This document shows positions 1,295-44,743 of a stretch of DNA of 64,000 bases, piece by piece. Numbering within the stretch: the stretch's first letter is position 1; every line of letters starts with the position of its first letter. The position numbers and the translations under genes are program-made. This stretch comes from an uncultured Latescibacterota bacterium (lineage in GTDB: Bacteria > Latescibacterota > UBA2968 > UBA8231), in the NCBI GenBank assembly GCA_951813615.1, contig OX638377.1, positions 3,434,599 to 3,498,598 of the forward strand, read 5' to 3'. Under the pieces are notes generated by a model. It was not told where the DNA came from, searched no databases, and worked only from the letters and a program-made list of their open reading frames with translations.

Positions 1295-2095
1295 CTAATC
1301 GTCCAGATTGCCCTGGACTATCACCTCCCCCGCAAATCCCTCGGCCACCATCCGCTCGGCAAAGGCCCACACCTCTGATTGGGGCAGCAGCGCGTTGTTG
1401 CTGATGATCAAATCCGCTCCCACGTGGCCGATGCCGCGCAACCCATCCAAGCTCTGCAGCGCGTCGTTGCCACTAACCTCTAAAAAGTCCCGCACGCTAG
1501 CTAAGTAGTGCAGGCCTTCTAGGCTTTGCAGCGCGTCGTTGAACCAAATGTCCACGCTGCCTTCGATCTCCACGAGGTGTGGCATGTCCGTCAGGGACGC
1601 AAGTGACTCATTGCGGACGAGCGCCAAGCCCCCGCTGACAGAGGCCAAGTTCTCCAGCCCTTTGAGCGAGCGCAGCGCCTTGTTTTCAAAGATCAATAGC
1701 CCTTCCACCACGTGGGCGGCTTTGCCGGCCGCGGGTGTGGGCAAGGGCGGTGATGCATCCGCTGGGCCTAGTCCAGCTCCGACGCTTTCAAGCCCTTCCA
1801 ATCCCGCTAGGCTCTCCAAGTGGTCGTTAAACCAAATCTCGACGCTGCCCTCGACGCGCCTCAGCCCTTCCAAACCCGTTAGCGCAACTAAGCTGCTCCC
1901 GACGATTTGCAAGTCGCCGTCGATGATGTAACTATCTCCCCCCCTTTCCCTAAGGGCCGCGATATCTGCCGGCGACGCAATGACAACGCCCTCTTCCAAG
2001 ACGATCGGAGCTATCGGATCTTTGCCACAGCCTGCCAGCGTGACGAACAACAGCAAGATCGCCCGCTCAAAAATCCCGCGCACACCGGATCCCAA
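1295..2095 (-). CDS. Lipoprotein with leucine-rich (receptor-L-domain / BspA-like) repeats
   Basis: 266-aa ORF with lipobox LLFVTLAGCGKD. A periodic L.SL.GL..L..V.G.L.I..N..L motif occurs at least six times. TTG start at 2095, alternative GTG at 2083. Confidence 0.55.
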   Translation of the reverse strand: MGSGVRGIFERAILLLFVTLAGCGKDPIAPIVLEEGVVIASPADIAALRERGGDSYIIDGDLQIVGSSLVALTGLEGLRRVEGSVEIWFNDHLESLAGLEGLESVGAGLGPADASPPLPTPAAGKAAHVVEGLLIFENKALRSLKGLENLASVSGGLALVRNESLASLTDMPHLVEIEGSVDIWFNDALQSLEGLHYLASVRDFLEVSGNDALQSLDGLRGIGHVGADLIISNNALLPQSEVWAFAERMVAEGFAGEVIVQGNLDD

Positions 2096-2918
2096 TATCT
2101 ATATCAGTCAGTCGCGGATCATAGGCTTCCCGATTCGCCGCGGGCAGAGACTCCTTCTCAAACCACCACGACCCACCCCGCAGCACCCCAAACTCCCCGC
2201 GCAGCGGCCCCTGCGGATTGTCCCGTGGACTTTCTGCATAGTACGTGTCCCCGTACCAATCGGACACCCATTCCCACACGTTACCCGCCATGTCGTGTCC
2301 CCCGTACGGCGACACGCCAGCGGGACGGCTGCCCACCGGCTCGGTCGCTCCGGCGATAAAGCGAAAGTTGGCCTCGTCGCCTTCCAACTCGTATCCCCAA
2401 GGATATATGCGCCCATCGGTTCCGCGCGCGGCCTTCTCCCACTCGGCCTCAGTCGGCAGCCGCAGGCCAGCCCACGCACAATAGTCGAACGCGCTTTGGC
2501 GGTTCACGCAGTTGATGGGATGCGTGTCTTCTATGTCTTTATCCCAATTGCAGTTAGGGGCATAGGCCGGCTCTTCGCAGGCGTCGGCCTCCACGCAGCG
2601 CCGGTACAGTCCTATGGTGACCTCGAATTGGTCGATGTAGTAATCAGAAAGAAAAACTTGGTGCGGCGGCTGCTCGTCCGGGTCGCCCGCATCCCAGCCC
2701 ATCACAAAAAGACCTTCGGGCACGAGGACCATGGCGTGATCGGCTTTGTTGACCTCGGTGACTTCGCTGGGCTCTTCGGCAACTTCGCTGGGTTCTTCGG
2801 TAGCAGGAGCCTCTTCGGGCGAAGTAGGCGCAACTACACGGTCTTCGCTCACCTGCCCCGGGGTCTTTTGGCCGCAACCAAGTGCCAACAGGGCCATGCA
2901 CACCAGTGCGCGACTCAA
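2067..2918 (-). CDS. Formylglycine-generating-enzyme (SUMF1/FGE-sulfatase) family lipoprotein
   Basis: Family motifs NVWEWVSDWY and LRGGSWW, plus an RCA tail. The long ORF (to 3008) would overlap the upstream gene. TTG at 2918 gives (M)SRALVCMALLALGCGQ, a signal peptide plus lipobox. ATG at 2897 is an alternative. Confidence 0.8.
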   Translation of the reverse strand: MSRALVCMALLALGCGQKTPGQVSEDRVVAPTSPEEAPATEEPSEVAEEPSEVTEVNKADHAMVLVPEGLFVMGWDAGDPDEQPPHQVFLSDYYIDQFEVTIGLYRRCVEADACEEPAYAPNCNWDKDIEDTHPINCVNRQSAFDYCAWAGLRLPTEAEWEKAARGTDGRIYPWGYELEGDEANFRFIAGATEPVGSRPAGVSPYGGHDMAGNVWEWVSDWYGDTYYAESPRDNPQGPLRGEFGVLRGGSWWFEKESLPAANREAYDPRLTDIDIGIRCARDF

Positions 2919-2929
2919 CGTGCAACCCC

Positions 2930-4921
2930 TCAGAACACGACCTGCGACACGGCCTTGGAAATCAGTGCAATGGCAATGGACGTCATGCCGATCAGGCCCA
3001 CGCCGCACGAGTACCCGGCCAGCACGATGGGCGCGTACGCGTACCAGCGCTCGGGGCCAAAGCGCTTTTGCAAATAGAAGCGACCCAGCAAGGCACCGAC
3101 GAAGTTGAGGATGGCAAAGTGCGGCCAGCCGCCGAGGCCAGCGACAAAACCATAGAAGATTCCCAGCGGTGCGCTGAGTGCGCTCAGCAGCGCGTACAAT
3201 GCGCCGCTAAAAACCAGCCCAATCCCGATGTAATCCCAGCGAATAATTTGCGTCACCAAGCTCTGGCCTGCACCCGGCAGCGTTGACTTAGCCCAGAACG
3301 CCTGCATGGTAGCGTGGAAGGGCCACATCTTTTGCACGAATGGGTATGCCGAGGAGGGAATCGGCCCTAACTTCCATATCAGCGACCAGAACAGGAAGCT
3401 ACACACGAACATCACAGCCAAGGTCAGAGCCGTCATCTTGACGATGCTGCCAAAGCGGGTGCGCGTCAGCTCTAGCTGCTTGAACACTTGCGCCTCGTAG
3501 CCCCACTGGAAGATCGGCACCGGCGCGAACCAGATCCCAGCCCCTTGGTAGCCGGACAAGTAGAAACTGGCCTCGCGCAGATAGGGAAACGTTACCCCCT
3601 GCGGCGACCCGGTCAGGCCGATCATCCGCGTGCCGATGTACGAGTAGATCGGCGTCCACACAAAGCCGAAGAGCGCGGTGATCCACCAAGGAAAATCGGG
3701 CACCAAATAGTACACCATCAGCACAAAGCCCAGCGTGCTCACCGCCCAGATCCCCAAGGCCATGACAATGCGGATGTCGCCGCGCTCGGGACTAGGTCCC
3801 CGGTCCGCTTCCCGCGCCGAGGCGCGCTCCTTGCTAGCGGCGAGCAAGACCTTGCCCGCCGTATAGAAGCCCACAGCCGCAACTACGATGGCCCCGCCCA
3901 GCGAAAAACTCAGCCAGAAGTCAAAGGTATTGGCGATCTGCGTGGGGATCGACGACATGCCCGGCTCCCAGGTGTGCAGGATGCCGTAGGCATAGAGGAT
4001 GGGGTTGGCGATCAAGTTGACCACAATCGACGAGGCAAACACCCCTACCACGACCCAGAACGGCAGCACGAGGCCAAACAGCACGTGGATTAAATCCGTG
4101 GCCAAGCCGATGACTGCGGCGGGCAAAACCGCCTTTAGCGGCACGGTGAAGTCGATGAAGGGAATCGGCAAAATCGACACGGTCTCGGTCAGAAAAACCG
4201 ACGACAGCGTTGGCACCACCACGTAGAATACGCCCCACACCGCCCCGATAAAGGCCCCGGTGCTGAACACGTGCCAGCGCCAGCCCTCCTGCTTGGCCGA
4301 GGTCTCGGCAAGGGCGGTGGCACCGCCAGCCTGTACATACGCCATGGGAAAGGGCAAACGCTCGATGTCGTGGGTGATGCGGAAGAGCACGTAACCCAAC
4401 GACAGGGCATTGACGCGCTGCAATGCAACGGCGCAGAGGAGAATGACGATGGGCTTGAGCCACGCGCTGTCGAGAAAGCTGCGCTCTAAGAGGGCCTCCG
4501 ACCCACGCGGAGGCACGACCCAAGTTGGAATGTGTTCGGCCAGTCCGTCGGCCTGAGGCGATTGGATCAGATATTGATCCCAAATCAACACGCCGAACGG
4601 GCCACCGAAGAGGTCCGCCCCCGTGCCCAGCTTGCCACCCATCATCACCAAGCCCCCGGCCACCCAGTAGAGAATAATAATCTCCTGAGTCCGCAGGTAC
4701 ACGAAAGTGCGCTTGGCCATCTCGATAAAGAGAATCAGGGTCACCCACTCGGCACCCCCGGCCATGCTCATCCCAGTCACCAGCCCGAGGTAAATCGCGC
4801 CCGGCAGCATTACAAAGCCGACGAAGAGCGCCGCCCACAGGGTCTTTGCATTGAAGCCCGGTTCAAAGGGGGCGTCGGCGGGCATAACCGCGAAGCGCTC
4901 TTGGGCGTTGGCCTGTGACAA
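2930..4921 (-). CDS. Polytopic inner-membrane transporter, OPT (oligopeptide transporter)-like
   Basis: 663-aa ORF that is hydrophobic throughout (more than 12 predicted TM segments by eye). The N-terminal pattern PGAIYLGLVTGMSMAGGAEWVTLILF resembles OPT-family proteins. The family call was not verified by search. Confidence 0.45.
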   Translation of the reverse strand: MSQANAQERFAVMPADAPFEPGFNAKTLWAALFVGFVMLPGAIYLGLVTGMSMAGGAEWVTLILFIEMAKRTFVYLRTQEIIILYWVAGGLVMMGGKLGTGADLFGGPFGVLIWDQYLIQSPQADGLAEHIPTWVVPPRGSEALLERSFLDSAWLKPIVILLCAVALQRVNALSLGYVLFRITHDIERLPFPMAYVQAGGATALAETSAKQEGWRWHVFSTGAFIGAVWGVFYVVVPTLSSVFLTETVSILPIPFIDFTVPLKAVLPAAVIGLATDLIHVLFGLVLPFWVVVGVFASSIVVNLIANPILYAYGILHTWEPGMSSIPTQIANTFDFWLSFSLGGAIVVAAVGFYTAGKVLLAASKERASAREADRGPSPERGDIRIVMALGIWAVSTLGFVLMVYYLVPDFPWWITALFGFVWTPIYSYIGTRMIGLTGSPQGVTFPYLREASFYLSGYQGAGIWFAPVPIFQWGYEAQVFKQLELTRTRFGSIVKMTALTLAVMFVCSFLFWSLIWKLGPIPSSAYPFVQKMWPFHATMQAFWAKSTLPGAGQSLVTQIIRWDYIGIGLVFSGALYALLSALSAPLGIFYGFVAGLGGWPHFAILNFVGALLGRFYLQKRFGPERWYAYAPIVLAGYSCGVGLIGMTSIAIALISKAVSQVVF

Positions 4922-4940
4922 AATTACTCCCCTCGTTTGC

Positions 4941-6593
4941 TCAGTTCTGCACTGACTCGTCGTCCAAATACCGCAGGTGCTCTTCGTACACGTCTATCTG
5001 CTCGGCGTATTTTTGGCGCAAATCCCGCAGATAGCTGTTGAAGAACTCCCGCTCGGCGCGCTCGCGCACATCCCGCTCCACCGAATTCCGCACCCGCTCT
5101 AGCTCTAGGCCGTGGTAAATCTCTGGGTATCGTTCGATGACCCGGAAAACCGAATAGCCCCCCCTCGTTTGGATCGGCCCTTGGAGCTGGTTCAGTTCGG
5201 TGTTCATCACCGCGTTCATCCAAACCTCCCCCAAAAAAGGAGCCTGTGATTCGGAGACGTACAGGAGACCATCTTCGGCGTTGCGGCGTCGGCTGTGAGC
5301 GCGGGCCAACTCCGACCACTCGGCACCCTCCTCAATCTGAGCCGCGATCTGGCGTGCCTCATCTGGGGTCGCGAGTAAAATTTCCTCTAATTGCGCGTGA
5401 GGGGGGCTGCGGAAACGGTGCTTGTGCTCCTCGTAGAAGGCCTGCAGCTCGTCTTCCGTCGGCGTGGGAGCCTCAGCCAAGATCTGCTCGCGCAGTTTCA
5501 TCAGCATCAGGTTGCCCAACGCTAGTTCATGCGACCGCGCGAAAGCCTCGGTTTTATCGAGGCCCTTGCGCCGGGCGTCGTGGGCCATAATGCGGGTGGG
5601 AAAGTGGCTCTCAGAGAGTTTCTCGTTGACGGAGTCTGCTGTGGCTTCCAACCACAGGCGGCCCGATGGCCGCACGGCCTCTAATACCTCTGCCACGTCC
5701 ATCTGCAAGCCCTCGAAAGCATAGACCGGGTGCTGGCGCTGAGCCTCGTCCAAGTCCGCGTAGCTAACCGAGCCCTGTAAGACGCTGACCACTATATCCA
5801 TGCCCTCGGCGTCAAAGACCGTGTCCAAATCCCACTTGAGGTGCCGCAGGTACGATTCGCGCAGTTGCTTTTGCTGCTCGTCGCCGAGTGCCTCGCGGAT
5901 GCCATCCTCGACCTCGATCAATTCTGCGCGGCGGCGCTCTCCCACTTTGGCGATGACGAATCCTCCGTGCAAGGGGAGCGGCTCAGTCACGCCGCCCTCG
6001 GGCAGGGCGAAGACCGCTTGTGCTAGGTCACGGGGGCTGTCGAAGGGCGAATAGGCCAGTCGCCGAATTTCGCCGGTATTCATGCCGTAATAGGGATCGG
6101 CGGCGAACTGACGACCAGCTTCCGCAAAGTCCCCGCCCTGCGCCAAAAGCGCCTGCACCTGACGCGCTTGTTCCCGGTTAGGCACAAAAATCTCCATGGT
6201 GGTGACTTTTTCCCCCCACCCCGGCCGCGCGTAGCCTTTTTCGATATCTTCCTCAGTAACTGAGACCTTGGCCGTGACGTTGCGCTGCATCATTGCGTCA
6301 GCTAGGGCCTTGGTTTCGCGCTCGGCGAGTTCAGCTAAGACCGTTTCGTCGTGCTGCAAACCCCGCTCATTGGCCGCCAAAAGCAACACCTCGCGGTCAA
6401 TGAGCGTTTGCAAGTTGTCCCGGTGCTGCACGCGCATGGTGGCCGTTTCGAGATTGGCCTCAAAGGTGCGCAGATCGGGCGCGGTAATCTCGACCTCACC
6501 AACCTTGGCCAGCAGATCGGCATTGTCTGGTCGCTTCTCGCCACAGCTAATGCAGGCCCCGACTAGCAGCCCAACCAACAGCAGTTTGTGCAT
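4941..6593 (-). CDS. SurA-like peptidyl-prolyl isomerase with two parvulin (PpiC) domains, lipoprotein
   Basis: Two PpiC-type segments are present (...GGDFAEAGRQFAADPYY...GGFVIAKV and ...GAEWSELARAHS...GGYSVFRVIE). ATG at 6593 gives MHKLLLVGLLVGACISCGE. The ORF track extends to 6647. Confidence 0.75.
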   Translation of the reverse strand: MHKLLLVGLLVGACISCGEKRPDNADLLAKVGEVEITAPDLRTFEANLETATMRVQHRDNLQTLIDREVLLLAANERGLQHDETVLAELAERETKALADAMMQRNVTAKVSVTEEDIEKGYARPGWGEKVTTMEIFVPNREQARQVQALLAQGGDFAEAGRQFAADPYYGMNTGEIRRLAYSPFDSPRDLAQAVFALPEGGVTEPLPLHGGFVIAKVGERRRAELIEVEDGIREALGDEQQKQLRESYLRHLKWDLDTVFDAEGMDIVVSVLQGSVSYADLDEAQRQHPVYAFEGLQMDVAEVLEAVRPSGRLWLEATADSVNEKLSESHFPTRIMAHDARRKGLDKTEAFARSHELALGNLMLMKLREQILAEAPTPTEDELQAFYEEHKHRFRSPPHAQLEEILLATPDEARQIAAQIEEGAEWSELARAHSRRRNAEDGLLYVSESQAPFLGEVWMNAVMNTELNQLQGPIQTRGGYSVFRVIERYPEIYHGLELERVRNSVERDVRERAEREFFNSYLRDLRQKYAEQIDVYEEHLRYLDDESVQN

Positions 6594-6681
6594 AAAAAGA
6601 GGAGCTAGACGGAAGGTCCAGCTCCTCGCAATGAGATATCCTACCATGCTGTACTATCCAGATGCGGAGCAACGCCAGGAC

Positions 6682-7449
6682 TTAACCCGACCCGCCCGCA
6701 CTGGCCTTTTCCCTCGTTCCTTGGTCCACCGCAAAGCGAAACTCGACGTCGATGGTCTCTTCCGGATTGCCGCTGGCGTCAAACGAAAGCACGAATTCGT
6801 GGAATGTGAGCAGCAACTCGTCGTTTTCTGGCAGCAACGGGTCGAAGACCAACATGCCTTTTTGATTGCTATCGCGGAAGATCGGTCGCTGGCGGTGAAA
6901 GACCGTCTTGTAGATAATGCCCATGCGCTCCAAGTTGATTTCGCGTTCGTTACCCGAAGTGCCGAGCTCCATTCTGTAGTACTTGGTGAAGCTATTGCCC
7001 CCCAGTACGATCGCCCCCTCGCGCCCAGGATCGTAGTAGCGATAGGTCTCGCCGCCCGATTCCATGGTCGCCTTGGCCGGATCGAATTCGATCTTGGCAT
7101 AGGTTTTGTTTATGACCTCGACCTCAAAGACCGTGAACTGCGGCGGAATATAGCCCTTTTCAGGATCGATCTTGTCTCGGGTGTAGGGGTTGACGTGGCG
7201 ACCATCGTACAGAGGTGGGAATCGCTCGTTGAGCTCGGGGTCACTCAGGTGCCGGACCCTAATCAAAAGCCCCTCTTTGCTAAAGACCATCGAGCTGTCG
7301 TCTGGGTCGATGGTGTAATCGCCGCGGCCCTCGGGCAGGATGGGCATCACGTGTAGGTCGTACTCGAGTTGGGGCGGCACCAGCCCTCCACAACTCCAGA
7401 CTAGCCCGAGCACCACTAAGCCGACGAGCACCATATACCTCGTTCTCAT
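6682..7449 (-). CDS. Lipoprotein of unknown function, paralog of 18490..19269
   Basis: 255-aa ORF with lipobox LGLVWSCGG. It shares with the 259-aa ORF the P(I/V)LP(E/D)G..Y.IDP.DSS.V(F/W)S..G..(I/V).V motif and the (F/W)TVFEV.VIN.T block. Confidence 0.6.
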   Translation of the reverse strand: MRTRYMVLVGLVVLGLVWSCGGLVPPQLEYDLHVMPILPEGRGDYTIDPDDSSMVFSKEGLLIRVRHLSDPELNERFPPLYDGRHVNPYTRDKIDPEKGYIPPQFTVFEVEVINKTYAKIEFDPAKATMESGGETYRYYDPGREGAIVLGGNSFTKYYRMELGTSGNEREINLERMGIIYKTVFHRQRPIFRDSNQKGMLVFDPLLPENDELLLTFHEFVLSFDASGNPEETIDVEFRFAVDQGTREKASAGGSG

Positions 7450-7480
7450 AAAATTGCAACTCCCTTTTTGCTAGCTGTCG

Positions 7481-7900
7481 TCAATTGGTTGGTTCCTCGG
7501 TTTCAATGTCGATCTGTGCTACTCCCGCTATAGTCGCCATTTCCATCGCGTCGATGATATGGCCGTGCGCGGCATCGGCATCCGCGGTGATAATCAATGT
7601 CGATGAGCCGGTGCGGACCTTTTCGCGCTCTAGCCAACTTGCGAGCTGCCCCATGGCCACTAGCTGCCCGTTGATCTCAAGCTGACCCTCGCTCGAAATG
7701 CGCAGATTCAGCTTCTTCTCAGACTTGATCTGGTCGTAATGGACCGAATCGGGCAGCTCGATCTTGAGCTGGGTAGCCTTGACGAAGACCGTGGTGGTCA
7801 TAAAGAAGATCAGCAGCAGGAATACCGCGTCTATCATCGGCGTTAGATTCAGTTCAAATTCGCCGGCTTTTTCGGCCAGCGACTGTCTCCGTTTAGCCAT
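7481..7900 (-). CDS. exbD: ExbD/TolR-family biopolymer transport protein
   Basis: MAKRRQS...ELNLTPMIDAVFLLLIFFM is a single TM segment followed by a periplasmic domain, typical of ExbD. ATG at 7900 is preceded by GGAGAAGGA and avoids overlap with the upstream gene. Confidence 0.9.
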   Translation of the reverse strand: MAKRRQSLAEKAGEFELNLTPMIDAVFLLLIFFMTTTVFVKATQLKIELPDSVHYDQIKSEKKLNLRISSEGQLEINGQLVAMGQLASWLEREKVRTGSSTLIITADADAAHGHIIDAMEMATIAGVAQIDIETEEPTN

Positions 7901-7904
7901 GCCG

Positions 7905-8324
7905 CTATCCTTCTCCGCTCTTGGCGAAAGCGATGGCTTCAATGCCCTCGCCGCGGGCGATGTCCATCACCTGCACCACATAGGAGTGAGGTATTGAACG
8001 CGCGGACTCTAAGATCACGTTCTTGGTGTTGTCGGCCTCGATGACTTGGCGGATCTTTTCCGCCAAGCTCTCCTTATCCGTGACCTCGCCGTTGACTTGG
8101 ATCGTCTGATCCGGGTCAATCACGATGTTCATGTCCTTGGTCGCTCGCGACTCACCCTCGCCGCCCGGCAGATCTACGCTCAGGCCCTTGGGGTTGACGA
8201 AGGTAGTCGCCACCATAAAGAAAACCAATAGCAAGAACATGCAGTTGATAAGCGGTGTCAGATCCGGATTCTCCGAGGTCTTGAAGGCGCTTTTGCCGAA
8301 TCCGCTCTTTCGTCTTTGCCGCAT
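7905..8324 (-). CDS. exbD: ExbD/TolR-family biopolymer transport protein (second copy)
   Basis: 139-aa ORF. PDLTPLINCMFLLLVFFMV is the TM segment, and the periplasmic domain is ExbD-like. Confidence 0.9.
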   Translation of the reverse strand: MRQRRKSGFGKSAFKTSENPDLTPLINCMFLLLVFFMVATTFVNPKGLSVDLPGGEGESRATKDMNIVIDPDQTIQVNGEVTDKESLAEKIRQVIEADNTKNVILESARSIPHSYVVQVMDIARGEGIEAIAFAKSGEG

Positions 8325-8342
8325 CGCAGCGTCTCTTTCTGC

Positions 8343-9017: not shown

Positions 9018-9065
9018 TACAACCTCCCGGTATTGTGTCCTGCTTTGCGCTGCGTTGAAAGCTCG

Positions 9066-12338: not shown

Positions 12339-12355
12339 GGTGTCAATCTCCTAGC

Positions 12356-15292: not shown

Positions 15293-15328
15293 GCAGTGTA
15301 GAGATTCTATCTTCAGTCACCTTCCAAC

Positions 15329-16189
15329 TCAGTGCTGGCGATAACCAACGCTGAACCGATGCACGCCTCCATAACCGGAGAGGTGCAGCGGGTATGAATA
15401 AGCATAATCGAAATGCCATTGCTTATAGTTGTGCCCAAGCCCCACGTTGAGCTCTCTCTCGTCAAAACCCGCACCAACTGCGGCCCCACCCATGCGGAAC
15501 CGAGCACCGTTGAGGCTCGCCGTCAGCGTCTCGTACCCCACCCTGAACTCCGTTCGCCCATCGCGGCGCTCAATGTCGAGCAGGACTTCCCGCCCCGCCA
15601 AGTTGAGCAAGGCCGCCGCGACCACGGCCGGCTCTTCTTTGCCTGCGTCTTGGCCACCTGCGGCGATGTTCGCGCCGTTTAAACCTTTGGCGACCAAGGC
15701 CAAACGCAGGTACGCTCGCGGGTATATGAAACCCACTTCCCAAGTGGCACCTACATCGAGGTGCCAAGCCCGGTGCGACAAGTCGCCGGCTTTCCAAGCG
15801 CTGGTGCGCAAGCCGCCGCCCAAGGCAAATCGCTCGTTCAGCGGCCGTCCGTAGCCTAAGGCAATCACTTCTTCGCGCCAGCCGTCAGCACCGAGAAACG
15901 AGACGCCCAGTTGGAAGCCGCCGCCCCGCAAGGGCCCGGTTACCGACAAGCCGTTTAGGGCTGGACTTTGGTCCAACCCGGGATAGAGCAACGCGTGAGT
16001 CGTACCAGCCTGCCACTTTTGCTGCTGGGCGTTGCCAGCCGGATTGTACCAAACGGCCTCAGCCGTCCGAATGCTGGCGGCAAAAGCGCCGCCCAGTGCC
16101 GTGCTCTGGGCTCCCCGTCCCGCGAATTCAAAAGCAGCTTCGCCCGGGAAAACAAGAGCCAGCAATAGGACGCTAGTACGCCACCACAA
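15329..16189 (-). CDS. PorV/PorQ-family-like outer-membrane beta-barrel protein
   Basis: After the signal peptide comes GRGAQSTALGGAFAASIRTAEAVWYNPAG, which resembles the G.RA..MGGA..A..DD..A...NPAG N-terminal signature of PorV/PorQ-type proteins. The rest has alternating beta-strand character. TTG start overlaps the upstream gene by 17 nt. Confidence 0.55.
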   Translation of the reverse strand: MWWRTSVLLLALVFPGEAAFEFAGRGAQSTALGGAFAASIRTAEAVWYNPAGNAQQQKWQAGTTHALLYPGLDQSPALNGLSVTGPLRGGGFQLGVSFLGADGWREEVIALGYGRPLNERFALGGGLRTSAWKAGDLSHRAWHLDVGATWEVGFIYPRAYLRLALVAKGLNGANIAAGGQDAGKEEPAVVAAALLNLAGREVLLDIERRDGRTEFRVGYETLTASLNGARFRMGGAAVGAGFDERELNVGLGHNYKQWHFDYAYSYPLHLSGYGGVHRFSVGYRQH

Positions 16190-17831
16190 AAGTGCCTCGG
16201 CGCGCCTTATCGCTTCCTTCTATCCCAACTTCGTACAGATAGAGCCCCGGCTCGACAACGCGACCGCTGCCATCGCGGCCGTCCCACTCGAACTGATAGG
16301 TCCGGGCGCTTCCCATCTGCGCCAACTGGCGGATCGACCGACCGGTCAAGTTGTAAATTTTCAGCACTACTTCCCGGCCCTCTTCAATATTGCCGACGAC
16401 AAAAGCAAAGCGCGCATATTCGTCTGCAAACGGAGAGAACGGACGCGGCTCCACCTGCACTTCGCTCAAAAGCTGCAACGGCGTTCCCGCAGCCAATACC
16501 GTCCAAGTAGCACCCGGCATTTCCTGCCCCTGCTGCCAGTTCACGTACCCGTCTCTGTCGCCTTGGGCCTTGTTGCCGGCCGCAAAGCGCATGGCGGTCT
16601 TGTCGCGCACAAAGAGCGCCTGTCCCTCAATTTCAACGGTCGCCATCGCGTTGATCTGCTCGCTAGGTGCAAGCGCTATCAGCATCCCCTCCCGATCCGG
16701 CGTCGAGCCCCAAGTATAGCTCTCGGTAGGCACGAGTTCTCGACCATCGACGCGCACGGCTGTCACGCTGAGCAAGGGGCCTTGTATGCGCAAGAGATCC
16801 ACTCCGTAATCATCGACACCAGCCGTGATCTCCACCCGATAGATCAGCGCCGCTTCTTCGCCCTTGCGCAGCGAATTGGATACGACCACCTCCGCCAAGA
16901 GCTGCTGCGCGACCAAGACTGGATCGTAGTCAATGGCAATGCGCTTGAGCGCCGGGCTGACAAAGGGGGCCGAATTCGTCAGGCGTGCCCGGTACGCCAA
17001 CGGCGCGACCGGCTCGTCTCCGCTGTAGAAAAATTCCCCCTCCGTGTGCGCCGTAACTCTTCCCCAAGGCTCCTCTGCTCCCTCTGCAGTGGCTCCGCGC
17101 ACCTGCATCTCAATGCTCGTGCGCTCTGGACGCTCTGCTTGCCAGCGAATCTGCCCTACATTGACCAACATAGACGGGGCAAAGCTACCCTCTATGAAGC
17201 CTTCACTAACGTAACCCACGCCGAACACCTCAATTTCCCCGATGGCGACCCAGTTGCTGCGGTCTTGGCGGATTATTGTCAGCCGCACGAAGCGCCCCTC
17301 GCGTGGGATTGCCTCACCGCGCTCGTCGGTCGCAGCCCAAGTAGAATCTGCGCTCGTATCTACATTGAGGACGAAATTGTCCGGCTGCTCCGCCAAAAGG
17401 TGCCAGACTTGCGGTGCCACTTGGGCGGCGGTTTCGAGCCTATACCCACGCACGAAGTACTCGGGCTGGTTCAGCGCCGTCTCGCCAGCTAGCACTCTCA
17501 CCCGCTTGATCGCCCGGTCCAACCCGAGATCGACGGTAAACTGCTTGTCGAACACGTGATTGGTGCCTGAGATCCACTCGCTCCGCACGAGGTCAATCGC
17601 GCCGTCGGTTAGCGGCACCGGCTTGTCAAAATCGTCTAGCACTGATTGTCCTAAGGCCACGTTTACATCCTCGTCCAACTGCGCCAAAATGACGAGACTA
17701 TCTGGATGCACCTGTACGCCTTGGGTCGTTCCCAAGGCAAATGTATCGACCGCGTCCACCACCCAAGTTTTTAATTCAGCACGGCATGGACTGAATTCGA
17801 GCAAGAGCAAGAGTGCGCCCAGCCTCAGCAC
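16173..17831 (-). CDS. Secreted protein with discoidin (F5/8 type C)-like domain and FlgD-Ig/T9SS type-A C-terminal sorting domain
   Basis: The signal peptide is followed by ...RFVRLTIIRQDRSNWVAIGEIEVFG, which looks like a discoidin-type domain end. The last ~80 aa (VVLKIYNLTGRSIRQL....YQFEWDGRDGSGRVVEPGLYLYEV....RGTFVVAY) match the T9SS CTD / FlgD-Ig pattern. GTG start. Confidence 0.6.
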   Translation of the reverse strand: MLRLGALLLLLEFSPCRAELKTWVVDAVDTFALGTTQGVQVHPDSLVILAQLDEDVNVALGQSVLDDFDKPVPLTDGAIDLVRSEWISGTNHVFDKQFTVDLGLDRAIKRVRVLAGETALNQPEYFVRGYRLETAAQVAPQVWHLLAEQPDNFVLNVDTSADSTWAATDERGEAIPREGRFVRLTIIRQDRSNWVAIGEIEVFGVGYVSEGFIEGSFAPSMLVNVGQIRWQAERPERTSIEMQVRGATAEGAEEPWGRVTAHTEGEFFYSGDEPVAPLAYRARLTNSAPFVSPALKRIAIDYDPVLVAQQLLAEVVVSNSLRKGEEAALIYRVEITAGVDDYGVDLLRIQGPLLSVTAVRVDGRELVPTESYTWGSTPDREGMLIALAPSEQINAMATVEIEGQALFVRDKTAMRFAAGNKAQGDRDGYVNWQQGQEMPGATWTVLAAGTPLQLLSEVQVEPRPFSPFADEYARFAFVVGNIEEGREVVLKIYNLTGRSIRQLAQMGSARTYQFEWDGRDGSGRVVEPGLYLYEVGIEGSDKARRGTFVVAY

Positions 17832-17832
17832 T

Positions 17833-18489
17833 TCAGAACAGCAGTTTCTGCGTCAGGCTGGTCACCACGGCAATGGCGAGGGCCTCCTCCAACTCCTTGG
17901 AGTTGAAGATCATGACAATGCCGGCATCAACCGGGCTTTTCGTGCTCACTTTGCCGGTTTTGAGATCCTTGACTGAGACTTCGACCTGCACTCTTTGCGT
18001 TTGCGGGGAGAATACTTTGCGCACCCGCTGACTAGTAATCAGCGCCGTGCCGCTAATTTCCAAGTCGGCCTCGTCCGAGTCCTCCGACACTAGCGCGAAG
18101 GGATTGTTCACTTGCCGCACGCTGTCTTCGTCTAGCACCTCGACCCGATCCGTCTGCGTGAGGATCCGCACCTTGTCCTTGCGCAGTTCGCGCAACAAGG
18201 CCCCAGACAAGTCCTCGATGCGCGAAGGCCGAGTAATCTGCACTAGTTTATTACCTTGGCTGGCGAGAGCATTAGTAATGTACTGGGTGCCCTGGCTAGC
18301 GGTCGAATTAGCGGCCCTCGGATCGACCACGTTGGCCTTGCTCTCGACCGGGAACTCCTTGACGTATATCTTGATCGGCATCGACGGCGGGTTGGGCAAA
18401 CTGGTGTCCTTAAGTGCCTCGTATTTCAAAGTGCAGGCCATCGAGCCGACAAGCAGCGTCACTCCGAGGAACTTCGCCATTTCTTTCAT
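17833..18489 (-). CDS. Lipoprotein of unknown function
   Basis: 218-aa ORF with MKEMAKFLGVTLLVGSMACT (lipobox). It abuts both flanking genes. I recognise no family motif. Confidence 0.5.
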   Translation of the reverse strand: MKEMAKFLGVTLLVGSMACTLKYEALKDTSLPNPPSMPIKIYVKEFPVESKANVVDPRAANSTASQGTQYITNALASQGNKLVQITRPSRIEDLSGALLRELRKDKVRILTQTDRVEVLDEDSVRQVNNPFALVSEDSDEADLEISGTALITSQRVRKVFSPQTQRVQVEVSVKDLKTGKVSTKSPVDAGIVMIFNSKELEEALAIAVVTSLTQKLLF

Positions 18490-19269
18490 TTACTTATTCT
18501 CCACCCAACGCACTCCGTGATCGACATTGAAGCGGAATTTCAGATCAGTAAATTCCACCGGATTGCCGTAGCCTACTTGAAAGCGATCAAAGGCCAGAAT
18601 GAAGTCATTTACTTCGAGGGTAAGCGACTTGGTCTCTGCAGGCAGCGGCGGAAAAGTCAGCTTGCCGACATACCTAGAGCCTTTGCGCACGGGCTTTTCT
18701 CGGTGGTACGCGCTTTTAGTCCAGATGGGGCCGCGATCCAAGCTGGCGTGATAGCGCACATTGCCTTCTTGTCCCCCCCACTTCAAATAGGAATAGTCGT
18801 AGTACTCGTCCTTGTCGTACCAATTTCCCGCCCCTTGGCCACAGAGCAAGCGGCGGCCATCGTCCAAGCGCAGAATGGTCTGCGTAGGATCTAGCTCCAC
18901 CCGCTCCCGGGTGCGGTTGATCACCGTCACCTCAAAAACAGTCCACAAGGGCGGCGTATAGTCCAAGCTGGGGATTTCGACGCCCGTGAGCGTATAGGGC
19001 GTGTAGCGGACGTCGTATTCGGCGTCGAGCATGGCATCGTCGTAGAACTTGACCTTGACTTGCACCCCTTGCTCACTCCACACGACCGAGCTGTCGATCG
19101 GATCAATGTAATAGGTATCTCCATCGGGTAGGACCGGCTCCAGCTCGATAAAGTACTCCCGCTGCTCATGCGATTCGAGGGATCTGAGGGTAGCGCACCC
19201 CCCGGCGGCCAGCACCAAGCACAGGAGAACGTGTATGTATTTTGTGAGGGATCTCATCTGCATTCGCAT
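18490..19269 (-). CDS. Lipoprotein of unknown function, paralog of 6682..7449
   Basis: 259-aa ORF with lipobox LVLAAGGCAT. It shares motifs with the 255-aa ORF (see that entry). Confidence 0.6.
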   Translation of the reverse strand: MRMQMRSLTKYIHVLLCLVLAAGGCATLRSLESHEQREYFIELEPVLPDGDTYYIDPIDSSVVWSEQGVQVKVKFYDDAMLDAEYDVRYTPYTLTGVEIPSLDYTPPLWTVFEVTVINRTRERVELDPTQTILRLDDGRRLLCGQGAGNWYDKDEYYDYSYLKWGGQEGNVRYHASLDRGPIWTKSAYHREKPVRKGSRYVGKLTFPPLPAETKSLTLEVNDFILAFDRFQVGYGNPVEFTDLKFRFNVDHGVRWVENK

Positions 19270-19270
19270 C

Positions 19271-22200
19271 CTAGAAGGGTGATATCAGCTCCACGAAGAG
19301 GATGCCCTGCTTGGAGTCGGGCCGCCCCTCATGGCTATAGTCCCGCCGCGTGCGCTGGTAGCCGAAGAATATCGAATTATCGCGGATGCCAAAGTAGTCT
19401 GCGGTGATGCTCAGCATGGCCAGATAATCGGTTTGGCTGTACGTCCCGGTCTGGCTGTACGCCCCGATCTGGCTGTACGTCCCGTCCTCAGAGCCGCGAT
19501 CCCAGTGCTTAAACGGCAACAAGGGTAGCCCTTGTATGCCTAGCTGGAAGCTAGTCTTGGGCGTGAGCTTGTACCGCCCCATTACGATGGGGATGAAGTC
19601 GCTGTACGATTGCCTCGGCGCATCTTCGCTGTCAACCTGCTCAAAGATCGTCCGATGCTTCAACTTAGGCGTAACGCTGAACGCACCCCAGCTTCGGGTG
19701 TAGTCGATCTTGTTGACAATGGAAAAACGCGAGCGCACGTCTTGGGGTTGCAACAGCCCGCTGCCGTCTTCAAGCTCAATTTCGGCTTGGCTGTTGCGCT
19801 GCCACAGGAAGCCATTTTCAATGTTGAAGCCGCGAAAGCCCTGATAGGTGCTATCGAAAAAGAGGAGATGCACAAAGCTGTCGCGCATCAATAGCTCGTC
19901 TGGCGTCGCCGGCCGCCAAAAACCCGCGCGTTCGGGCGGCCCGTCTGGCTCGTTAAACCAGTTAATGATCTCAACATCGTCAATGGGCACTCGGTACACA
20001 TAGGTGTGATCCGGGATGTCGTCTTTGACCTGCTTGGCGTCGTAGTTAATCTTCAGTTGGCCGACGCCGCGCTTTGCCACCTCATAGGCGTAGCGGAAGT
20101 ACAGCGCCTCGGACTTACCGGGGCCGGCAATCTGACTGTTGTCGTAACGGCCTAGGGCAATGAACTTGCCCAAGCGCCCCAAGCGGTCGTAGCGGATGAA
20201 GATGTGCTGGCCCTTTTGGTCGCGCGGGTAGGGATAGTCCGGCTTATCGTCGTTCTCGCGGAAGTCGGGCACATTGTTGTTATTGAAGTCGATGCCATAG
20301 ACAAATTCGGGCGGTTCCGAATCGTAGGTCAGAAAAGCCTCGTCCCAGTCCACAATAAAGTTCTCGTTGCGATCCATATCTGGGATGTTATCGACGTTCT
20401 CGTCGAGGCCCGGATACACTTGGGCACCGGGATTACCTGGATAAAGCGAACGCGGCTCGGCTGTGGCCGTATCGTCGCTGTGGCTGTCGGGTAAGGTATC
20501 GTGATCGTCGTTGTCTTCGTGGAGGGGATATTCCTCGGTGACCGTAGAGGTTCTCTGGCCGGGCGCAGGCTGCCCATCGTAGTGGAAGGCCATACCACCT
20601 CGGTAACTGTCGTACCCACCGCCGTAGTCGGGCTCCATGCGGTACATCTCACCGCCCAGTGACAGGCCGCCGGCTAGCTCCTTGACGCCCTTGACCCACC
20701 ACGCAAAGGCGCGTTCACTGCTGCGCTCGCCCTCGTTATTGCCGATTGGGAACATGAAGTTTTGCAGATTGTGCGCCACTTCGCCGCTGAGATCTAGCCC
20801 TACCAAATCGACCTGATAGTTGATCGAGGCCAAACTCTGCCCGGTGGGAATGCCGTAGTCAAAGGAGACCATCCGCCGGTTGGCACCCGTGCCGTCGCCG
20901 CCATTGGAGCGGACCACAGTGTAGTAGAGCTCCTCATCTTCGTCTGTGTACCACTTAAATGGACGCCGTATAGCCCGTTCACCAGCGCTGGCTATGGGGG
21001 CTGGCCACGCCGACTCGGTAATAGCTGCGTCGCCTCGGCGATCAATATTGAAGAAGTCGTGGGTCTGGCTGACGCCGACCCGATAGTCGCCAGCCACATC
21101 GGCGACAAAGCGCGCCGAACGCACTGTCACGTCCGGCGGGAGGACGAAGGTGTACACCACCGGCACCTTTCCCTCGGCCTCGCGCCCGCCGCCAGTGTGA
21201 ACGGCCCCGCCTTCGGGCGGCCCGGCTTCTAACAGCGGGTCGTAGTCCGGGTCGTCGTCGAGGCTGGTCAGGCGCACCGGCTCTGTGTTGCGCTCGCCCT
21301 CAAGGACGATGTCCACGCCATAGACAATGGCATTGGCCCGGGCGTCGTCGGGCGAGTCATCGGCCACGAAGACGCGGATGGTCTTGGGACCGAGCATCTC
21401 ATAGGGCAAATCGCCGCGCCAAGCACTGGAACGCGACAGCGCCGGCGCAGCCATGATCTGGTTGATTAGCGTCCCGCCAACGCTGGCGAATCTCCCTACT
21501 TCGTGCTGATAGTGGCCACCAAAGAGCAGCACTGGTGAATGATCCCAAGCGTCGTCGCCCTCTTGGCCAAACGCCCATTTGGAGAATAGCTGGGTACCGG
21601 AGTGATCGCCACCGCGCGAGTAGAGCAGAGTCGCTCGGTCGCGCTCCTTGTAGTTGATGTCCATGCGCAGCACATTCAGCTTGCTGTTGACCAGCGTAAG
21701 CGGCGTGAAGATGGTGCGCACATCCGTACCACCGCCCCCTGTGCCAATGTTGCCCAACGTGGCGGTCCAGTGCAAATCCTTGTAGGTATAGTGGCCGACC
21801 CGGAACGCCCGATACTTATGGTCAATATAGCTAGCTCCACTAAAGTCATTGCCACTGCGCGACTCTTCTATCGTCAGGAGTCGCCGATAGCCGCCGCCCA
21901 TGTAGTTGCCCATCCGATCCCAGCCCACATTACGGGTCCTTAGCGCACGGCCCGACGGGGTGGCCCAAGCAACGGTCTCGCGGTAGTACGAAATGTACTT
22001 TTCGTCGGCGTAGTTGAGATAGGGAACACTGACTGCAGTGTTGAGGAAGGCCCTCCCCAATCCTCGATCATAGCGGTCCTGGGGACCGCGCAGGAAGGGA
22101 GGGCGCTTTTTCCACGGGGGATCTTGCGGGGTTCCAGGTGCGGGGTTGTAATAGGGCAGCGGACCGCCGGATTCGGGGTGGCGCTGCGCATCCGCTGGCG

Positions 22201-22276
22201 CGGACAGGCCTGCGCCAACCAGCGCGGACAAGACCACCCAGCGCTCGACAACACGGCATTTTAGCAAACACAGCAT
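19271..22276 (-). CDS. Large secreted protein, predicted outer-membrane beta-barrel with acidic Ca-binding-like insert (paralog of 12356..15292)
   Basis: ATG at 22276 is preceded by GAGGGG and gives MLCLLKCRVVERWVVLSALVGAGLSAPADAQ. The ORF-track start at 22330 would lie inside the promoter/terminator region. The C-terminal residue is Phe (..ELISPF). Conserved blocks are shared with the 978-aa ORF. Confidence 0.6.
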   Translation of the reverse strand: MLCLLKCRVVERWVVLSALVGAGLSAPADAQRHPESGGPLPYYNPAPGTPQDPPWKKRPPFLRGPQDRYDRGLGRAFLNTAVSVPYLNYADEKYISYYRETVAWATPSGRALRTRNVGWDRMGNYMGGGYRRLLTIEESRSGNDFSGASYIDHKYRAFRVGHYTYKDLHWTATLGNIGTGGGGTDVRTIFTPLTLVNSKLNVLRMDINYKERDRATLLYSRGGDHSGTQLFSKWAFGQEGDDAWDHSPVLLFGGHYQHEVGRFASVGGTLINQIMAAPALSRSSAWRGDLPYEMLGPKTIRVFVADDSPDDARANAIVYGVDIVLEGERNTEPVRLTSLDDDPDYDPLLEAGPPEGGAVHTGGGREAEGKVPVVYTFVLPPDVTVRSARFVADVAGDYRVGVSQTHDFFNIDRRGDAAITESAWPAPIASAGERAIRRPFKWYTDEDEELYYTVVRSNGGDGTGANRRMVSFDYGIPTGQSLASINYQVDLVGLDLSGEVAHNLQNFMFPIGNNEGERSSERAFAWWVKGVKELAGGLSLGGEMYRMEPDYGGGYDSYRGGMAFHYDGQPAPGQRTSTVTEEYPLHEDNDDHDTLPDSHSDDTATAEPRSLYPGNPGAQVYPGLDENVDNIPDMDRNENFIVDWDEAFLTYDSEPPEFVYGIDFNNNNVPDFRENDDKPDYPYPRDQKGQHIFIRYDRLGRLGKFIALGRYDNSQIAGPGKSEALYFRYAYEVAKRGVGQLKINYDAKQVKDDIPDHTYVYRVPIDDVEIINWFNEPDGPPERAGFWRPATPDELLMRDSFVHLLFFDSTYQGFRGFNIENGFLWQRNSQAEIELEDGSGLLQPQDVRSRFSIVNKIDYTRSWGAFSVTPKLKHRTIFEQVDSEDAPRQSYSDFIPIVMGRYKLTPKTSFQLGIQGLPLLPFKHWDRGSEDGTYSQIGAYSQTGTYSQTDYLAMLSITADYFGIRDNSIFFGYQRTRRDYSHEGRPDSKQGILFVELISPF
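19430..19483 (-). repeat. 18-bp x3 in-frame tandem repeat (encodes GTYSQ-IGAYSQ-TGTYSQ) near the 3' end of the 1019-aa gene
   Basis: The units ggtttggctgtacgtccc / ggtctggctgtacgcccc / gatctggctgtacgtccc are read directly. Confidence 0.85.
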
Positions 22277-22325
22277 GAAAACCCCTCGCGGGTCGTATTG
22301 AGCGACCGAAAAGTTAATGGGCGAA

Positions 22326-22355
22326 AACATAGGTTGGCCAAAGCTCGCGGGTCAA
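22326..22355 (-). promoter_or_regulatory. Candidate sigma70-type promoter for the long minus-strand gene train
   Basis: The minus strand reads TTGACC-N18-TATGTT, about 45 nt upstream of the ATG at 22276 and immediately after the upstream terminator. Sequence match only. Confidence 0.3.
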
Positions 22356-22356
22356 G

Positions 22357-25776: not shown

Positions 25777-25798
25777 GCTTCGCTGTAAAGTCAATCTC

Positions 25799-25840
25799 AA
25801 AGCAGGTGTCAGGTTCCCAATTCCCGACACCTGCTTTCAC
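25799..25840 (+). terminator. Hairpin terminator candidate after the DUF4159 gene
   Basis: Stem aaagcaggtgtc / gacacctgcttt with a 15-nt loop. The T-tract is short, only the paired ttt followed by cactt. Confidence 0.45.
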
Positions 25841-25853
25841 TTAAATCTCCACC

Positions 25854-26672: not shown

Positions 26673-26673
26673 T

Positions 26674-28353: not shown

Positions 28354-28356
28354 TTA

Positions 28357-32483: not shown

Positions 32484-32484
32484 A

Positions 32485-44740: not shown

Positions 44741-44743
44741 AGG

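Follow-up and report, generated by a model that had tools for sequence, protein, structure and literature searches.

To our knowledge, only few routes are known by which inner-membrane energy reaches the outer membrane, namely the Ton system, the Tol-Pal system, the Agl-Glt system, and the flagellar stators. Outside of the Myxococcales, the function of the Glt core is unknown (PMC3169522, PMC11761067, PMC6851124). A counterpart of this core is encoded by FSU_2396-2403 of Fibrobacter succinogenes, in the order OmpA, two tetratricopeptide repeat (TPR) proteins, ExbB, two ExbD proteins, and TonB (PMC6851124). In the Glt machinery itself, GltD represents a TPR pillar, to which GltG and GltJ bind with their TonB-CTD domains (PMC11761067). 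In another group of gene clusters, a transducer whose head is the vWA (von Willebrand factor A) domain is encoded after the order TPR-tolQ-tolR-tolR, and the vWA domain replaces TonB_C (PMC12204202). Here we compare these systems with a locus of an uncultured Latescibacterota bacterium. The window, i.e., the whole stretch of DNA that was analyzed, has a length of 64,000 nucleotides (assembly GCA_951813615.1, contig OX638377.1, positions 3,434,599 to 3,498,598). It contains a train of 15 genes on the minus strand, designated A to O, the preceding gene U, and a divergent unit of the genes X, T, V, and W. With moderate confidence the locus can be read as one copy of a conserved apparatus with several paralogs per genome, which spans the cell envelope, is driven by the proton-motive force, and belongs by its general mechanism to the class of the Ton, Tol, and Agl-Glt systems.

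The 15 open reading frames (ORFs) of the train follow each other between 1295 and 22330, or between 1295 and 22276 when the preferred start of gene A is used. The first-pass annotation, which had been made from the letters alone, had placed all 15 genes on the minus strand at these coordinates, and the junctions that it quoted are all correct. One nucleotide separates A from B (19271/19269) and C from D (17833/17831), B and C are directly adjacent (18490/18489), D and E overlap by 17 nt (16173-16189), and I and J are 4 nt apart (7905/7900, with the ATG of J at 7900). The extremes are a gap of 48 nt between G and H (9066/9017) and an overlap of 29 nt between N and O (2067/2095).

The arrangement was followed in a scan of one genome per GTDB species, which found more than 553 relatives, and the window proteins were mapped onto the ORFs of 79-81 loci (cited here by their survey numbers, e.g., L001). 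More than 15 relatives share the order U-A-B-C-D-E-F-G-H-I-J-K-L-M, which is still complete at a protein identity of only 45-60% in L001, L016-L025, and L029. Therefore, the arrangement is not due to chance, and the strong conservation in related genomes is in agreement with the proposal of the first-pass annotation that the train encodes a machine. Of the two results that the annotation had named as refuting, namely TBDT models for the large proteins together with a canonical tonB elsewhere, or a lack of conserved gene order, neither was obtained. A short form, D-E-F-G-ExbB-ExbD-T-K, is found in metagenome-assembled genomes (MAGs) of Ignavibacteriaceae, Kryptoniota, and 'Bacteroidota' (L056-L058, L064, L066). 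In addition, the genes for F/A, G, K, T, D, U, L, N, and ExbB-ExbD-ExbD are reshuffled in at least five types of paralogous loci within the same genomes; for example, OZ244561 carries L009, L038, and L074. The orders observed include F-F-F-G-K(-U-T), T-D-A-G-K, G-T-K-D-F-A-D-F-D, D-A-A-G-ExbB-ExbD-ExbD-K, and, in L080, A-F-N-G-K-U-T-ExbB-ExbD-ExbD. Invariant are one to three giant barrels, a TPR protein of about 1,040-1,100 aa, and a K-type lipoprotein. Frequent companions of this core are a DUF4159 protein, D-type proteins with a C-terminal domain (CTD), CBM9-like proteins, peptidyl-prolyl isomerases (PPIases), and proteins with an FGE fold. A genome has 4-6 of these differentiated loci, which vary in their surface proteins. 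The conserved order, the reshuffling of the same parts, and the domain fusions described below argue for one system rather than mere neighbors.

The products of all 15 train ORFs were scanned with the Pfam and NCBIfam models. The Pfam matches bear out the earlier assignment of one ExbB/TolQ-type and two ExbD/TolR-type genes. H (8343-9017) encodes a proton-channel subunit of the ExbB/TolQ family with 224 aa and three transmembrane segments (MotA_ExbB, E 6e-29), while I (7905-8324) and J (7481-7900, from the ATG at 7900) encode subunits 1 and 2 of the ExbD/TolR family, each with 139 aa and one transmembrane segment (ExbD, E 4e-26 and E 9e-28, respectively). The NCBIfam equivalog cut-offs for ExbB, ExbD, TolQ, and TolR are reached by none of the three, and H scores 90 bits with TolQ and 64 bits with ExbB, both under the cut-offs. 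The transmembrane motif is LTPLINC in I, with Asn at the place of the transmembrane Asp that is otherwise universal in ExbD/TolR, versus LTPMIDA in J, in which the Asp is kept. The Asn of ExbD1 occurs in the window lineage as well as in L017, L020, L025, and L029, and an Asp is present in L001, L062, and L070; ExbD2 has always kept its Asp. The combination of an Asn in ExbD1 and an Asp in ExbD2 implies that the ExbD heterodimer is asymmetric, with only one site that can be protonated.

The genes A (19271-22276) and F (12356-15292) encode giant outer-membrane beta-barrel proteins. A has 1001 aa from the ATG at 22276 (1019 aa as ORF), a signal peptide, and the C-terminus ...ISPF; F has 978 aa, a signal peptide, and a C-terminal Phe strand. 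The two are paralogs (35% identity, E 2e-159), as had been supposed, and the scans gave no family assignment for them, nor for the 259-, 255-, 218-, and 663-aa proteins of the train. In an exhaustive profile search of 1.84 billion representatives, the barrel family amounted to 751 clusters (50% identity); it has no Pfam model and is conserved mainly in its C-terminal 540 residues or so. For F itself, Pfam gives a weak match to SlpA_C (E 8e-4). F was modeled with AlphaFold2 from an alignment of 42 sequences (pLDDT 73, pTM 0.73), and the model contains long beta-hairpins. Its Foldseek matches in the PDB are very large barrels only, the best being SlpA, MtrB, and LptD with TM-scores of up to 0.24. 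Further matches are TonB-dependent transporters (TBDTs; E 5e-5 to 1e-3, TM-scores 0.14-0.21), ushers, and SprA (E 5e-4, TMq 0.21; PDB 8gl8 is among the matches). As the matches are generic large barrels at these low TM-scores, F is taken as a big outer-membrane barrel of no assigned family. Searches of F, K, and E by sequence against PDB chains returned nothing useful, with no PDB match for E.

The topology of F was deduced from the DSSP string, not from coordinates, starting at the C-terminal Phe strand and proceeding toward the N-terminus. This reading is self-consistent and predicts a barrel of about 24 strands without a plug of the TBDT type. The external connections would be very short (2-9 residues), and the long insertions would lie on the periplasmic side. 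They comprise a folded beta-rich domain after strand 6 (residues 216-461) and the residues 541-667 and 734-783. The conserved N-terminal segment (residues 26-111) is unstructured in the model. Most of the residues that are invariant in the family are found within the second insertion at 575-665 (window about 13300-13570), the best-conserved stretch of the barrel family, where the motif series DNDDND...PGLDEN.D..PD.DQN.NG.PDW...DFNNNG..D.RENDxxPDYPY is modeled with low AlphaFold confidence. This Asp/Asn-rich region resembles thrombospondin-type-3 or EF-hand-like loops and probably binds Ca.

Gene G (9066-12338) adjoins the barrel genes in every locus type. It encodes the giant TPR protein that had been noticed before, and its 1,090 aa are indeed made entirely of TPR units (matches to 23 Pfam families of the TPR type). 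With TIGR02795, a model of the YbgF/CpoB type, nine stretches are recognized, the BamD model is matched below its cut-off, and among PDB sequences only generic or designed TPRs, CpoB, and BamD are found. The aligned N-termini share a conserved, uncharged hydrophobic helix, and we propose that G is a periplasmic scaffold that may be anchored by this helix. The use of G as an analog of TonB via a transmembrane His or SHLS motif was considered and rejected, because the helix has neither a His nor a polar motif.

The candidate for a force transducer is encoded outside of the train, 2.2 kb upstream and on the opposite strand. T (24580-25776, plus strand) has the topology of TonB, i.e., a cytoplasmic N-terminus of 25 aa, one transmembrane helix, a Pro/Lys/Arg-rich linker, which reads KKAPRPLTTKFIKREPRLTKPLELRKIPQPK, and a globular DUF4159 head (PF13709, 33.1 bits, cut-off 25.9). 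A basic, Pro-rich linker is typical for T-type proteins (EKKAPRPLTTKFIKREPRLTKPLELRKIPQPKRQ), and paralogs of T match DUF4159 with 87-103 bits. Of the relatives of DUF4159, only 4i66, whose function is unknown, has a solved structure (profile against the PDB, E 4e-16). In most T types, across the locus types, the transmembrane helix contains the conserved motif [S/A]-x3-H. This is the first half of SHLS, the motif by which TonB and TolA dock on their motors. The role of SHLS in docking of TonB and TolA has been described previously (PMC12204202). Orthologs of T are 73-98% identical and thus more conserved than F or G. DUF4159 proteins are present in 28 of the 79 loci, where they are encoded after G (L065, L078), before D (L049-L054), directly before ExbB-ExbD-ExbD (L080), or between ExbD and K in Ignavibacteria-type loci (L056-L058). 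Literature searches for DUF4159, DUF6785, the type IX secretion system (T9SS) of Latescibacteria, or this locus type found nothing relevant, and the same is true for Ignavibacteria with ExbB, judged from titles and abstracts.

A further link to the Ton system is provided by the lipoprotein K (6682-7449). Its 255 aa were modeled as a confident beta-sandwich (AlphaFold2, pLDDT 87), and Foldseek returned only generic matches to beta-sandwiches like YjhA, MPT63, and ApaG. In other loci, relatives of K with 379-413 aa have a K domain followed by a TonB_C domain; the match of P0184 (26.2 bits) exceeds the gathering score of 24.6, and P0183 and P0185 have weaker matches at the same position. In the short form of the locus in Ignavibacteriaceae and Kryptoniota MAGs, the final K is a fusion of K with DUF4159 (e.g., L058, 18799-20268). 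The fusions of the K domain to either TonB_C or DUF4159 argue for T as the transducer, together with its transmembrane helix, linker, and globular head and the [S/A]-x3-H motif. K itself was rejected as a cryptic TonB, because it is a lipoprotein with a beta-sandwich and no TonB_C was found in the scanned ORFs of the window. B (18490-19269) encodes a paralog of K with 259 aa, a beta-sandwich domain, and the lipobox AGGC (36% identity, E 6e-40). C (17833-18489) encodes a protein of 218 aa without a Pfam or NCBIfam match that is syntenic in all orthologous loci; it was called a lipoprotein from its N-terminus ...GSMAC and was not flagged by the automated lipobox pattern. By lipobox inspection B, K, L, N, O, and V are predicted lipoproteins, and inspection for signal peptides was positive for U, A, D, F, and X.

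Secreted or outer-membrane proteins are also encoded by D, E, and U. D (16173-17831) is a secreted protein of 552 aa with a T9SS-type CTD and a weak match to a discoidin domain. It matches FlgD_ig with 27.4 bits (gathering score 27), CHU_C with E 8e-4, F5_F8_type_C with E 5e-3, the C-terminal region of PorU with E 5e-7, and Por_Secre_tail below threshold with E 0.026, while strong matches to F5_F8_type_C are found for the D-like proteins of L079 and L081. Therefore, the former designation as T9SS-CTD cargo holds with respect to the CTD-type sorting domain (FlgD_ig and the PorU CTD region). E (15329-16189) is a putative small outer-membrane barrel of 286 aa, whose gene always adjoins that of D in the main and the Ignavibacteria-type loci. 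The earlier label of a PorV-like protein would agree with its matches to models of the PorV/PorQ/PorP superfamily (PorV_fam, E 8e-11; PorP/SprF, E 8e-5, 22 bits), but with 42 bits E stays below the curated PorV_fam cut-off of 90. U (22423-23376, minus strand) encodes a secreted CBM9-like protein of 317 aa (CBM9_1, E 2e-10; signal peptide). Its position upstream of A is conserved in every orthologous locus, and in the paralogous loci L033, L043, and L080 the order is K-U-T, so that U can be regarded as a recurrent component of the system.

Which parts touch one another and what is moved we infer as follows. In the inner membrane, a pentamer of ExbB and a heterodimer of ExbD1 and ExbD2 would together convert proton flow into movement, the stoichiometry (ExbB5/ExbD1-ExbD2) being deduced from the solved ExbBD and TolQR structures. 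The movement would be taken up by T, with its DUF4159 head in place of TonB_C, and possibly also by the periplasmic pillar G. K and B would join the head of T in acting on the periplasmic inserts of the barrels A and F. D would be exported by a T9SS and held via its CTD on E, as PorU and PorZ are on PorV and PorQ, and the SurA-like PPIase L would probably act as chaperone of the giant barrels. The use that we favor is an energized gating of the giant barrels for the uptake or handling of a macromolecular substrate captured at the surface. Our confidence in the substrate is much lower than that in the general mechanism. With the present data, motility, secretion, and uptake are indistinguishable.

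Several observations weigh against this interpretation. All homologs are derived from MAGs. Many of the paralogous loci lack genes for a motor. T is encoded in the divergent unit and not in the train, and in the window lineage it lacks the transmembrane His, which is Leu in the window and in orthologs with at least 81% identity and is present in orthologs with 76% identity or less. Together with the Asn in ExbD1, this Leu indicates that the coupling in the window lineage may differ or be weakened. The N-terminal helix of G has no charged n-region, which makes its periplasmic placement uncertain. The strand count of F and the sidedness of its inserts depend on the DSSP assignment of a model with a pLDDT of 73, E and N are below the curated cut-offs of their families, and 122 non-core ORF clusters in the flanks of the loci show no enrichment of carbohydrate-active enzymes or transporters with Pfam.

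The transcriptional organization can be predicted from two hairpins. The first, a terminator-like hairpin with a 17-bp stem and a T-run (22399-22361, minus strand), is located after U, and it is followed by the sigma70-like promoter TTGACC-18-TATGTT (22355-22326, minus strand) upstream of A; both elements were found as they had been described. The ATG at 22330 overlaps the -10 hexamer, while GAGGGG is located upstream of the ATG at 22276, from which a signal peptide is read, and therefore 22276 is preferred as the start of A. U has its own promoter-like site (23461-23433, 11/12 matches). The second hairpin has a GC-rich 12-bp stem and a T-run (TTTTT; 6627-6599, minus strand). It is located between K and L, is separated by 5 nt from the ATG at 6593, the true start of L, and contains GAGGAG in its 5' arm. 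L004-L013 have retained this hairpin, L011 with compensatory changes, and hairpins of different sequence with T-runs are found at the same position in L001, L014, and L025. This hairpin is likely to be an internal terminator or attenuator that divides A-K from L-O, and it could also act as an mRNA-stabilizing element or a translational control element. Therefore, the 15 packed and co-directional genes form a train, as had been stated, but probably not one uninterrupted unit. The likely transcription units are U, A-K, and L-O, plus the divergent X-T-V-W. The CBM9-like gene and the divergent unit (23555-28353) are assigned to the same conserved system by their synteny.

The genes L to O encode four further proteins. 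L (4941-6593) is a lipoprotein that resembles SurA and PpiD. It contains two PPIase domains of the parvulin type (matches to Rotamase_2 with E 3e-24 and to Rotamase with E 1e-14) and recurs in the paralogous loci L033, L043, L071, and L076. M (2930-4921) is an inner-membrane protein of 663 aa with 12 hydrophobic transmembrane segments and a distant resemblance to DUF6785 (weak similarity to the DUF6785 protein of L001, E 3e-4). It is 79-99% identical across the orthologous loci, versus 53-65% for the barrels and the TPR protein, and DUF6785/DUF6784 proteins recur in the flanks of paralogous loci. N (2067-3008) is a lipoprotein with an FGE-sulfatase fold (E 3e-52), and FGE-sulfatase genes are located inside of the paralogous loci L080 and L081. 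O (1295-2095) is a lipoprotein of 266 aa with repeats that resemble leucine-rich repeats (LRRs) and receptor L domains (Recep_L_domain, E 1e-5; lipobox LAGC); whether it is part of the system is uncertain.

In the divergent unit, X (23555-24583, plus strand) encodes a secreted protein of 342 aa without a family, and its last 4 nt are shared with the start of T. A gene for a protein of 281 aa has the same position in L079, and a similarity of X to C was tested for and not found. T is followed in the same direction by V (25854-26672, plus strand), a HEAT-repeat lipoprotein, and by W (26674-28353, plus strand), an FG-GAP/UnbV_ASPIC protein. Both are predicted to be co-transcribed with T and may be accessory parts. 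A divergent unit with X-like, DUF4159, and HEAT proteins flanks the CBM9-like gene and A also in L079, and in L078 an ASPIC protein is encoded inside of the locus, between a K·TonB_C fusion and ExbB. From W onward, TPR and FG-GAP/UnbV_ASPIC (CRTAC1-like) genes form a run that extends from 26674 to 34505 of the window.

The homologs of the 978-aa protein F come almost exclusively from Latescibacteria/Latescibacterota MAGs. Contigs with loci that are 58-93% identical to Latescibacterota chromosomes are labeled Gemmatimonadota, Gemmatimonas phototrophica, or Planctomycetota (L007, L014, L016-L018, L020, L022), and some near-identical contigs bear the labels Gemmatimonadota, Handelsmanbacteria, or Planctomycetota. 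The odd labels are probably due to binning or taxonomy errors. The flanks of L003 contain GH42, sulfatase, and BNR genes, which is reminiscent of a polysaccharide utilization locus (PUL). The Pfam survey of the flanking clusters mentioned above retrieved only TPR, DUF6785/6784, DPPIV_N, PD40, and GT2 proteins with 3-6 members each, and a PUL-like role as a general explanation was dropped, as the respective enzymes are not enriched. Elsewhere in the window, the stretch 44000-47000 has a GC content of 0.48, versus about 0.60 in the remainder, contains an ORF with an N6_N4 DNA-methylase domain (44744-46936), and may represent a restriction-modification or mobile island. Three large Calx-beta-domain proteins of 1006, 1616, and 1002 aa are encoded in a row at 49844-61567 (minus strand), followed by a sigma-54 activator with receiver and PAS domains (61851-63755).

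If the locus does represent a further conserved system, it would have its own DUF4159 head, its own barrel family, and its own lipoprotein module, and would thereby widen the range of outputs of 5:2 motors. It would also provide the first functional context for DUF4159, possibly also for DUF6785, and show how a major uncultured phylum organizes its cell surface. The many specialized copies per genome suggest a central role in lifestyle, as is the case for PULs in Bacteroidota. We put forward, as a tentative proposal to which we give somewhat less than even weight, that the locus is the first representative of a new family of trans-envelope machines that are driven by 5:2 motors in the Fibrobacteres-Chlorobi-Bacteroidetes (FCB) group (Latescibacterota, Ignavibacteria, Kryptoniota). 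In this family, a DUF4159-headed analog of TonB and a TPR pillar of about 1,100 aa would couple ExbB/ExbD to a new class of giant outer-membrane barrels of about 24 strands, which would be gated or occupied by beta-sandwich lipoproteins. With 4-6 loci per genome, it would be an alternative to TonB-dependent transport without plug and TonB_C, or a new kind of device for surface translocation.

How does the locus compare with the systems that are already described? The first-pass annotation had drawn the comparison with the AglRQS motor and the Glt/Nfs machines. The Agl-Glt core of Myxococcus xanthus (AglR/Q/S, GltD, GltE, GltG, GltC) has the same set of one TolQ/ExbB-like and two TolR/ExbD-like genes, an exported TPR protein of about 1,100-1,200 aa beside the motor, a TonB-like transducer with a single transmembrane helix and a Pro-rich linker, and outer-membrane barrels and lipoproteins (PMC3169522, PMC11761067). 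It is likewise present in several diverged copies per genome with divergent functions, and it is also found in Fibrobacter, a member of the FCB group. Since D would display a discoidin domain of the adhesion type at the surface, on a PorV/PorQ-like barrel, the motor might move the TPR/transducer complex, which in turn would drag outer-membrane complexes with D along the cell in gliding, adhesin movement, or surface-layer assembly. This possibility, the best survivor among the alternatives, is nevertheless unlikely in our opinion. The comparison is valid for the motor composition, but the likeness of G, a TPR protein of 1,090 aa beside ExbB, to GltD and of H to AglR is one of architecture, and the Glt machinery has small, porin-like barrels (GltA/B/H) and a vWA adhesin, in contrast to the barrels of about 1,000 aa and the T9SS-CTD and PorV-like parts of the present locus. 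GltK, a CglB-type vWA adhesin, a giant cytoplasmic TPR protein, and cytoplasmic partners of the GltI/AglZ/MglA type were not found among the scanned ORFs of the window. The transducers also differ, because GltG and GltJ have cytoplasmic FHA/GYF domains, a long linker, and TonB_C, while T has only a 25-aa tail and the DUF4159 head, and TonB_C is confined to K variants in paralogous loci. Moreover, the core alone is not sufficient for motility (PMC3169522).

A second group of similarities concerns the T9SS. The parts of the locus parallel the extended translocon SprA-PorV-PPI-SprE and the attachment complexes PorU-PorV and PorZ-PorQ: D and many of its paralogs have a T9SS CTD, D stands beside a PorV/PorQ-like barrel, and the same locus has genes for a TPR protein, for a PPIase, and for a lipoprotein with the FGE fold. 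In addition to E with PorV_fam, G matches the PorW/SprE model (E 2e-32) and N the GldK/PorK model (E 6e-20). It is conceivable that the giant barrels are alternative translocons of a secretion and attachment module that is powered by ExbBD and not by GldLM, but we regard this as improbable. The matches are far under the curated cut-offs (113 versus 250 bits for G, 72 versus 350 for N, and 42 versus 90 for E), the PPIase is of the parvulin/SurA type, and the TPR and FGE folds are generic. SprA/Sov is larger than 2,000 aa and has 36 strands, whereas F has less than half of that size and neither F nor A matches the SprA model, and no GldL, GldM, or GldN homologs were found in the window. Most simply, D is the cargo of a canonical T9SS that is encoded elsewhere, and is anchored on E.

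With an equally low probability, the locus might serve envelope maintenance in a way similar to Tol-Pal or to SlpA, with structural barrels that the TPR protein and the motor would tether to the inner membrane and the cell wall, so that the outer membrane is stabilized. This would agree with the best scores of H, I, and J against TolQ/TolR models, which stay below the cut-offs, with the CpoB/YbgF- and BamD-type TPR units of G, with the SurA-like chaperone, and with the Deinococcus SlpA barrel, a tether between outer membrane and cell wall, as the closest relative of F by structure and Pfam. However, TolA, TolB (PD40), Pal/OmpA_C, and SLH domains were not detected by the scans of the train, and 4-6 differentiated loci per genome fit specialized functions better than housekeeping.

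A classical TonB-dependent uptake, with A and F as extremely divergent TBDTs and a canonical TonB elsewhere in the genome, seems to be slightly less probable again. ExbB-ExbD-ExbD is the usual motor of TonB in the FCB group, with examples in P. gingivalis and Fibrobacter, and single amplified genomes of Latescibacteria have been reported to contain TonB and Plug-domain proteins elsewhere (PMC4454575). The locus shares with TonB-ExbB-ExbD and TBDT/SusC systems the motor families (PF01618, PF02472), C-terminal-Phe barrels of the size of SusC, the occurrence of several differentiated loci per genome, and surface binding proteins that are encoded alongside; to these can be added the K·TonB_C fusions and the TBDTs among the Foldseek matches. 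On the other hand, TonB_C (PF03544), Plug (PF07715), and TonB_dep_Rec are not matched by any train ORF, including A and F, at E <= 0.01, and tonB, TBDT, sprA, or gld genes were not found among the scanned ORFs in the rest of the window. In the model, the N-terminal residues 26-111 of F do not form a plug of about 150 aa, the predicted strand number of about 24 differs from the 22 strands of TBDTs, and the TM-scores are no better than those of other big barrels. The giant TPR protein, K, and DUF4159, which are obligatory partners in the system, are foreign to Ton systems. The former attribute 'TonB-less' is thus correct for 1295-22356, but T with the topology of TonB is encoded nearby and TonB_C is present on K paralogs elsewhere. 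As the first-pass annotation had suggested, an uncharacterized trans-envelope machine that is energized by the proton-motive force is still the best interpretation, ahead of classical uptake via TonB. That the genes are merely co-directional neighbors of unrelated function is hardly credible, since the terminator-like hairpins before A and before L and the generic folds of several members (TPR, LRR, FGE) are outweighed by synteny over phylum-level distances, the recombination of the same families in paralogous loci, and the linking domain fusions.

Large barrels with an occupied lumen, i.e., LptD-LptE, MtrB-MtrA, the ushers PapC/FimD, and Deinococcus SlpA, share the 24-30-strand fold and a partner lipoprotein that is encoded in the vicinity (A-B-C; F...K), and the folded domain predicted after about strand 6 of F would be similar to the plug of ushers. 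However, the TM-scores do not exceed 0.24, homology is confined to the weak match to SlpA_C, and neither an ExbBD motor nor a giant TPR protein is used by any of these barrels. Among published descriptions, the cluster FSU_2396-2403 of F. succinogenes is close (PMC6851124), and the vWA transducer clusters come nearest (PMC12204202). The latter have the same order of a TPR protein, a TolQ-like protein, and two heterologous TolR-like proteins, and their transducers, which are of unknown function, likewise combine a transmembrane helix (with SHLS/His), a Pro-rich linker that is disordered, and an alpha/beta head other than that of TonB. In contrast, the head of T is DUF4159, a relative of 4i66, and not vWA, the next gene after the motor encodes the lipoprotein K, and giant outer-membrane barrels, K lipoproteins, and T9SS-linked surface proteins are present. 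The vWA clusters are known from PVC bacteria and Proteobacteria, while the present loci occur in Latescibacterota, Ignavibacteria, and Kryptoniota. The locus lacks defining features of each of the Ton, Glt, T9SS, and Tol-Pal systems, and it can be viewed as a new variant, possibly a new family, within the known class of motor-driven trans-envelope systems.

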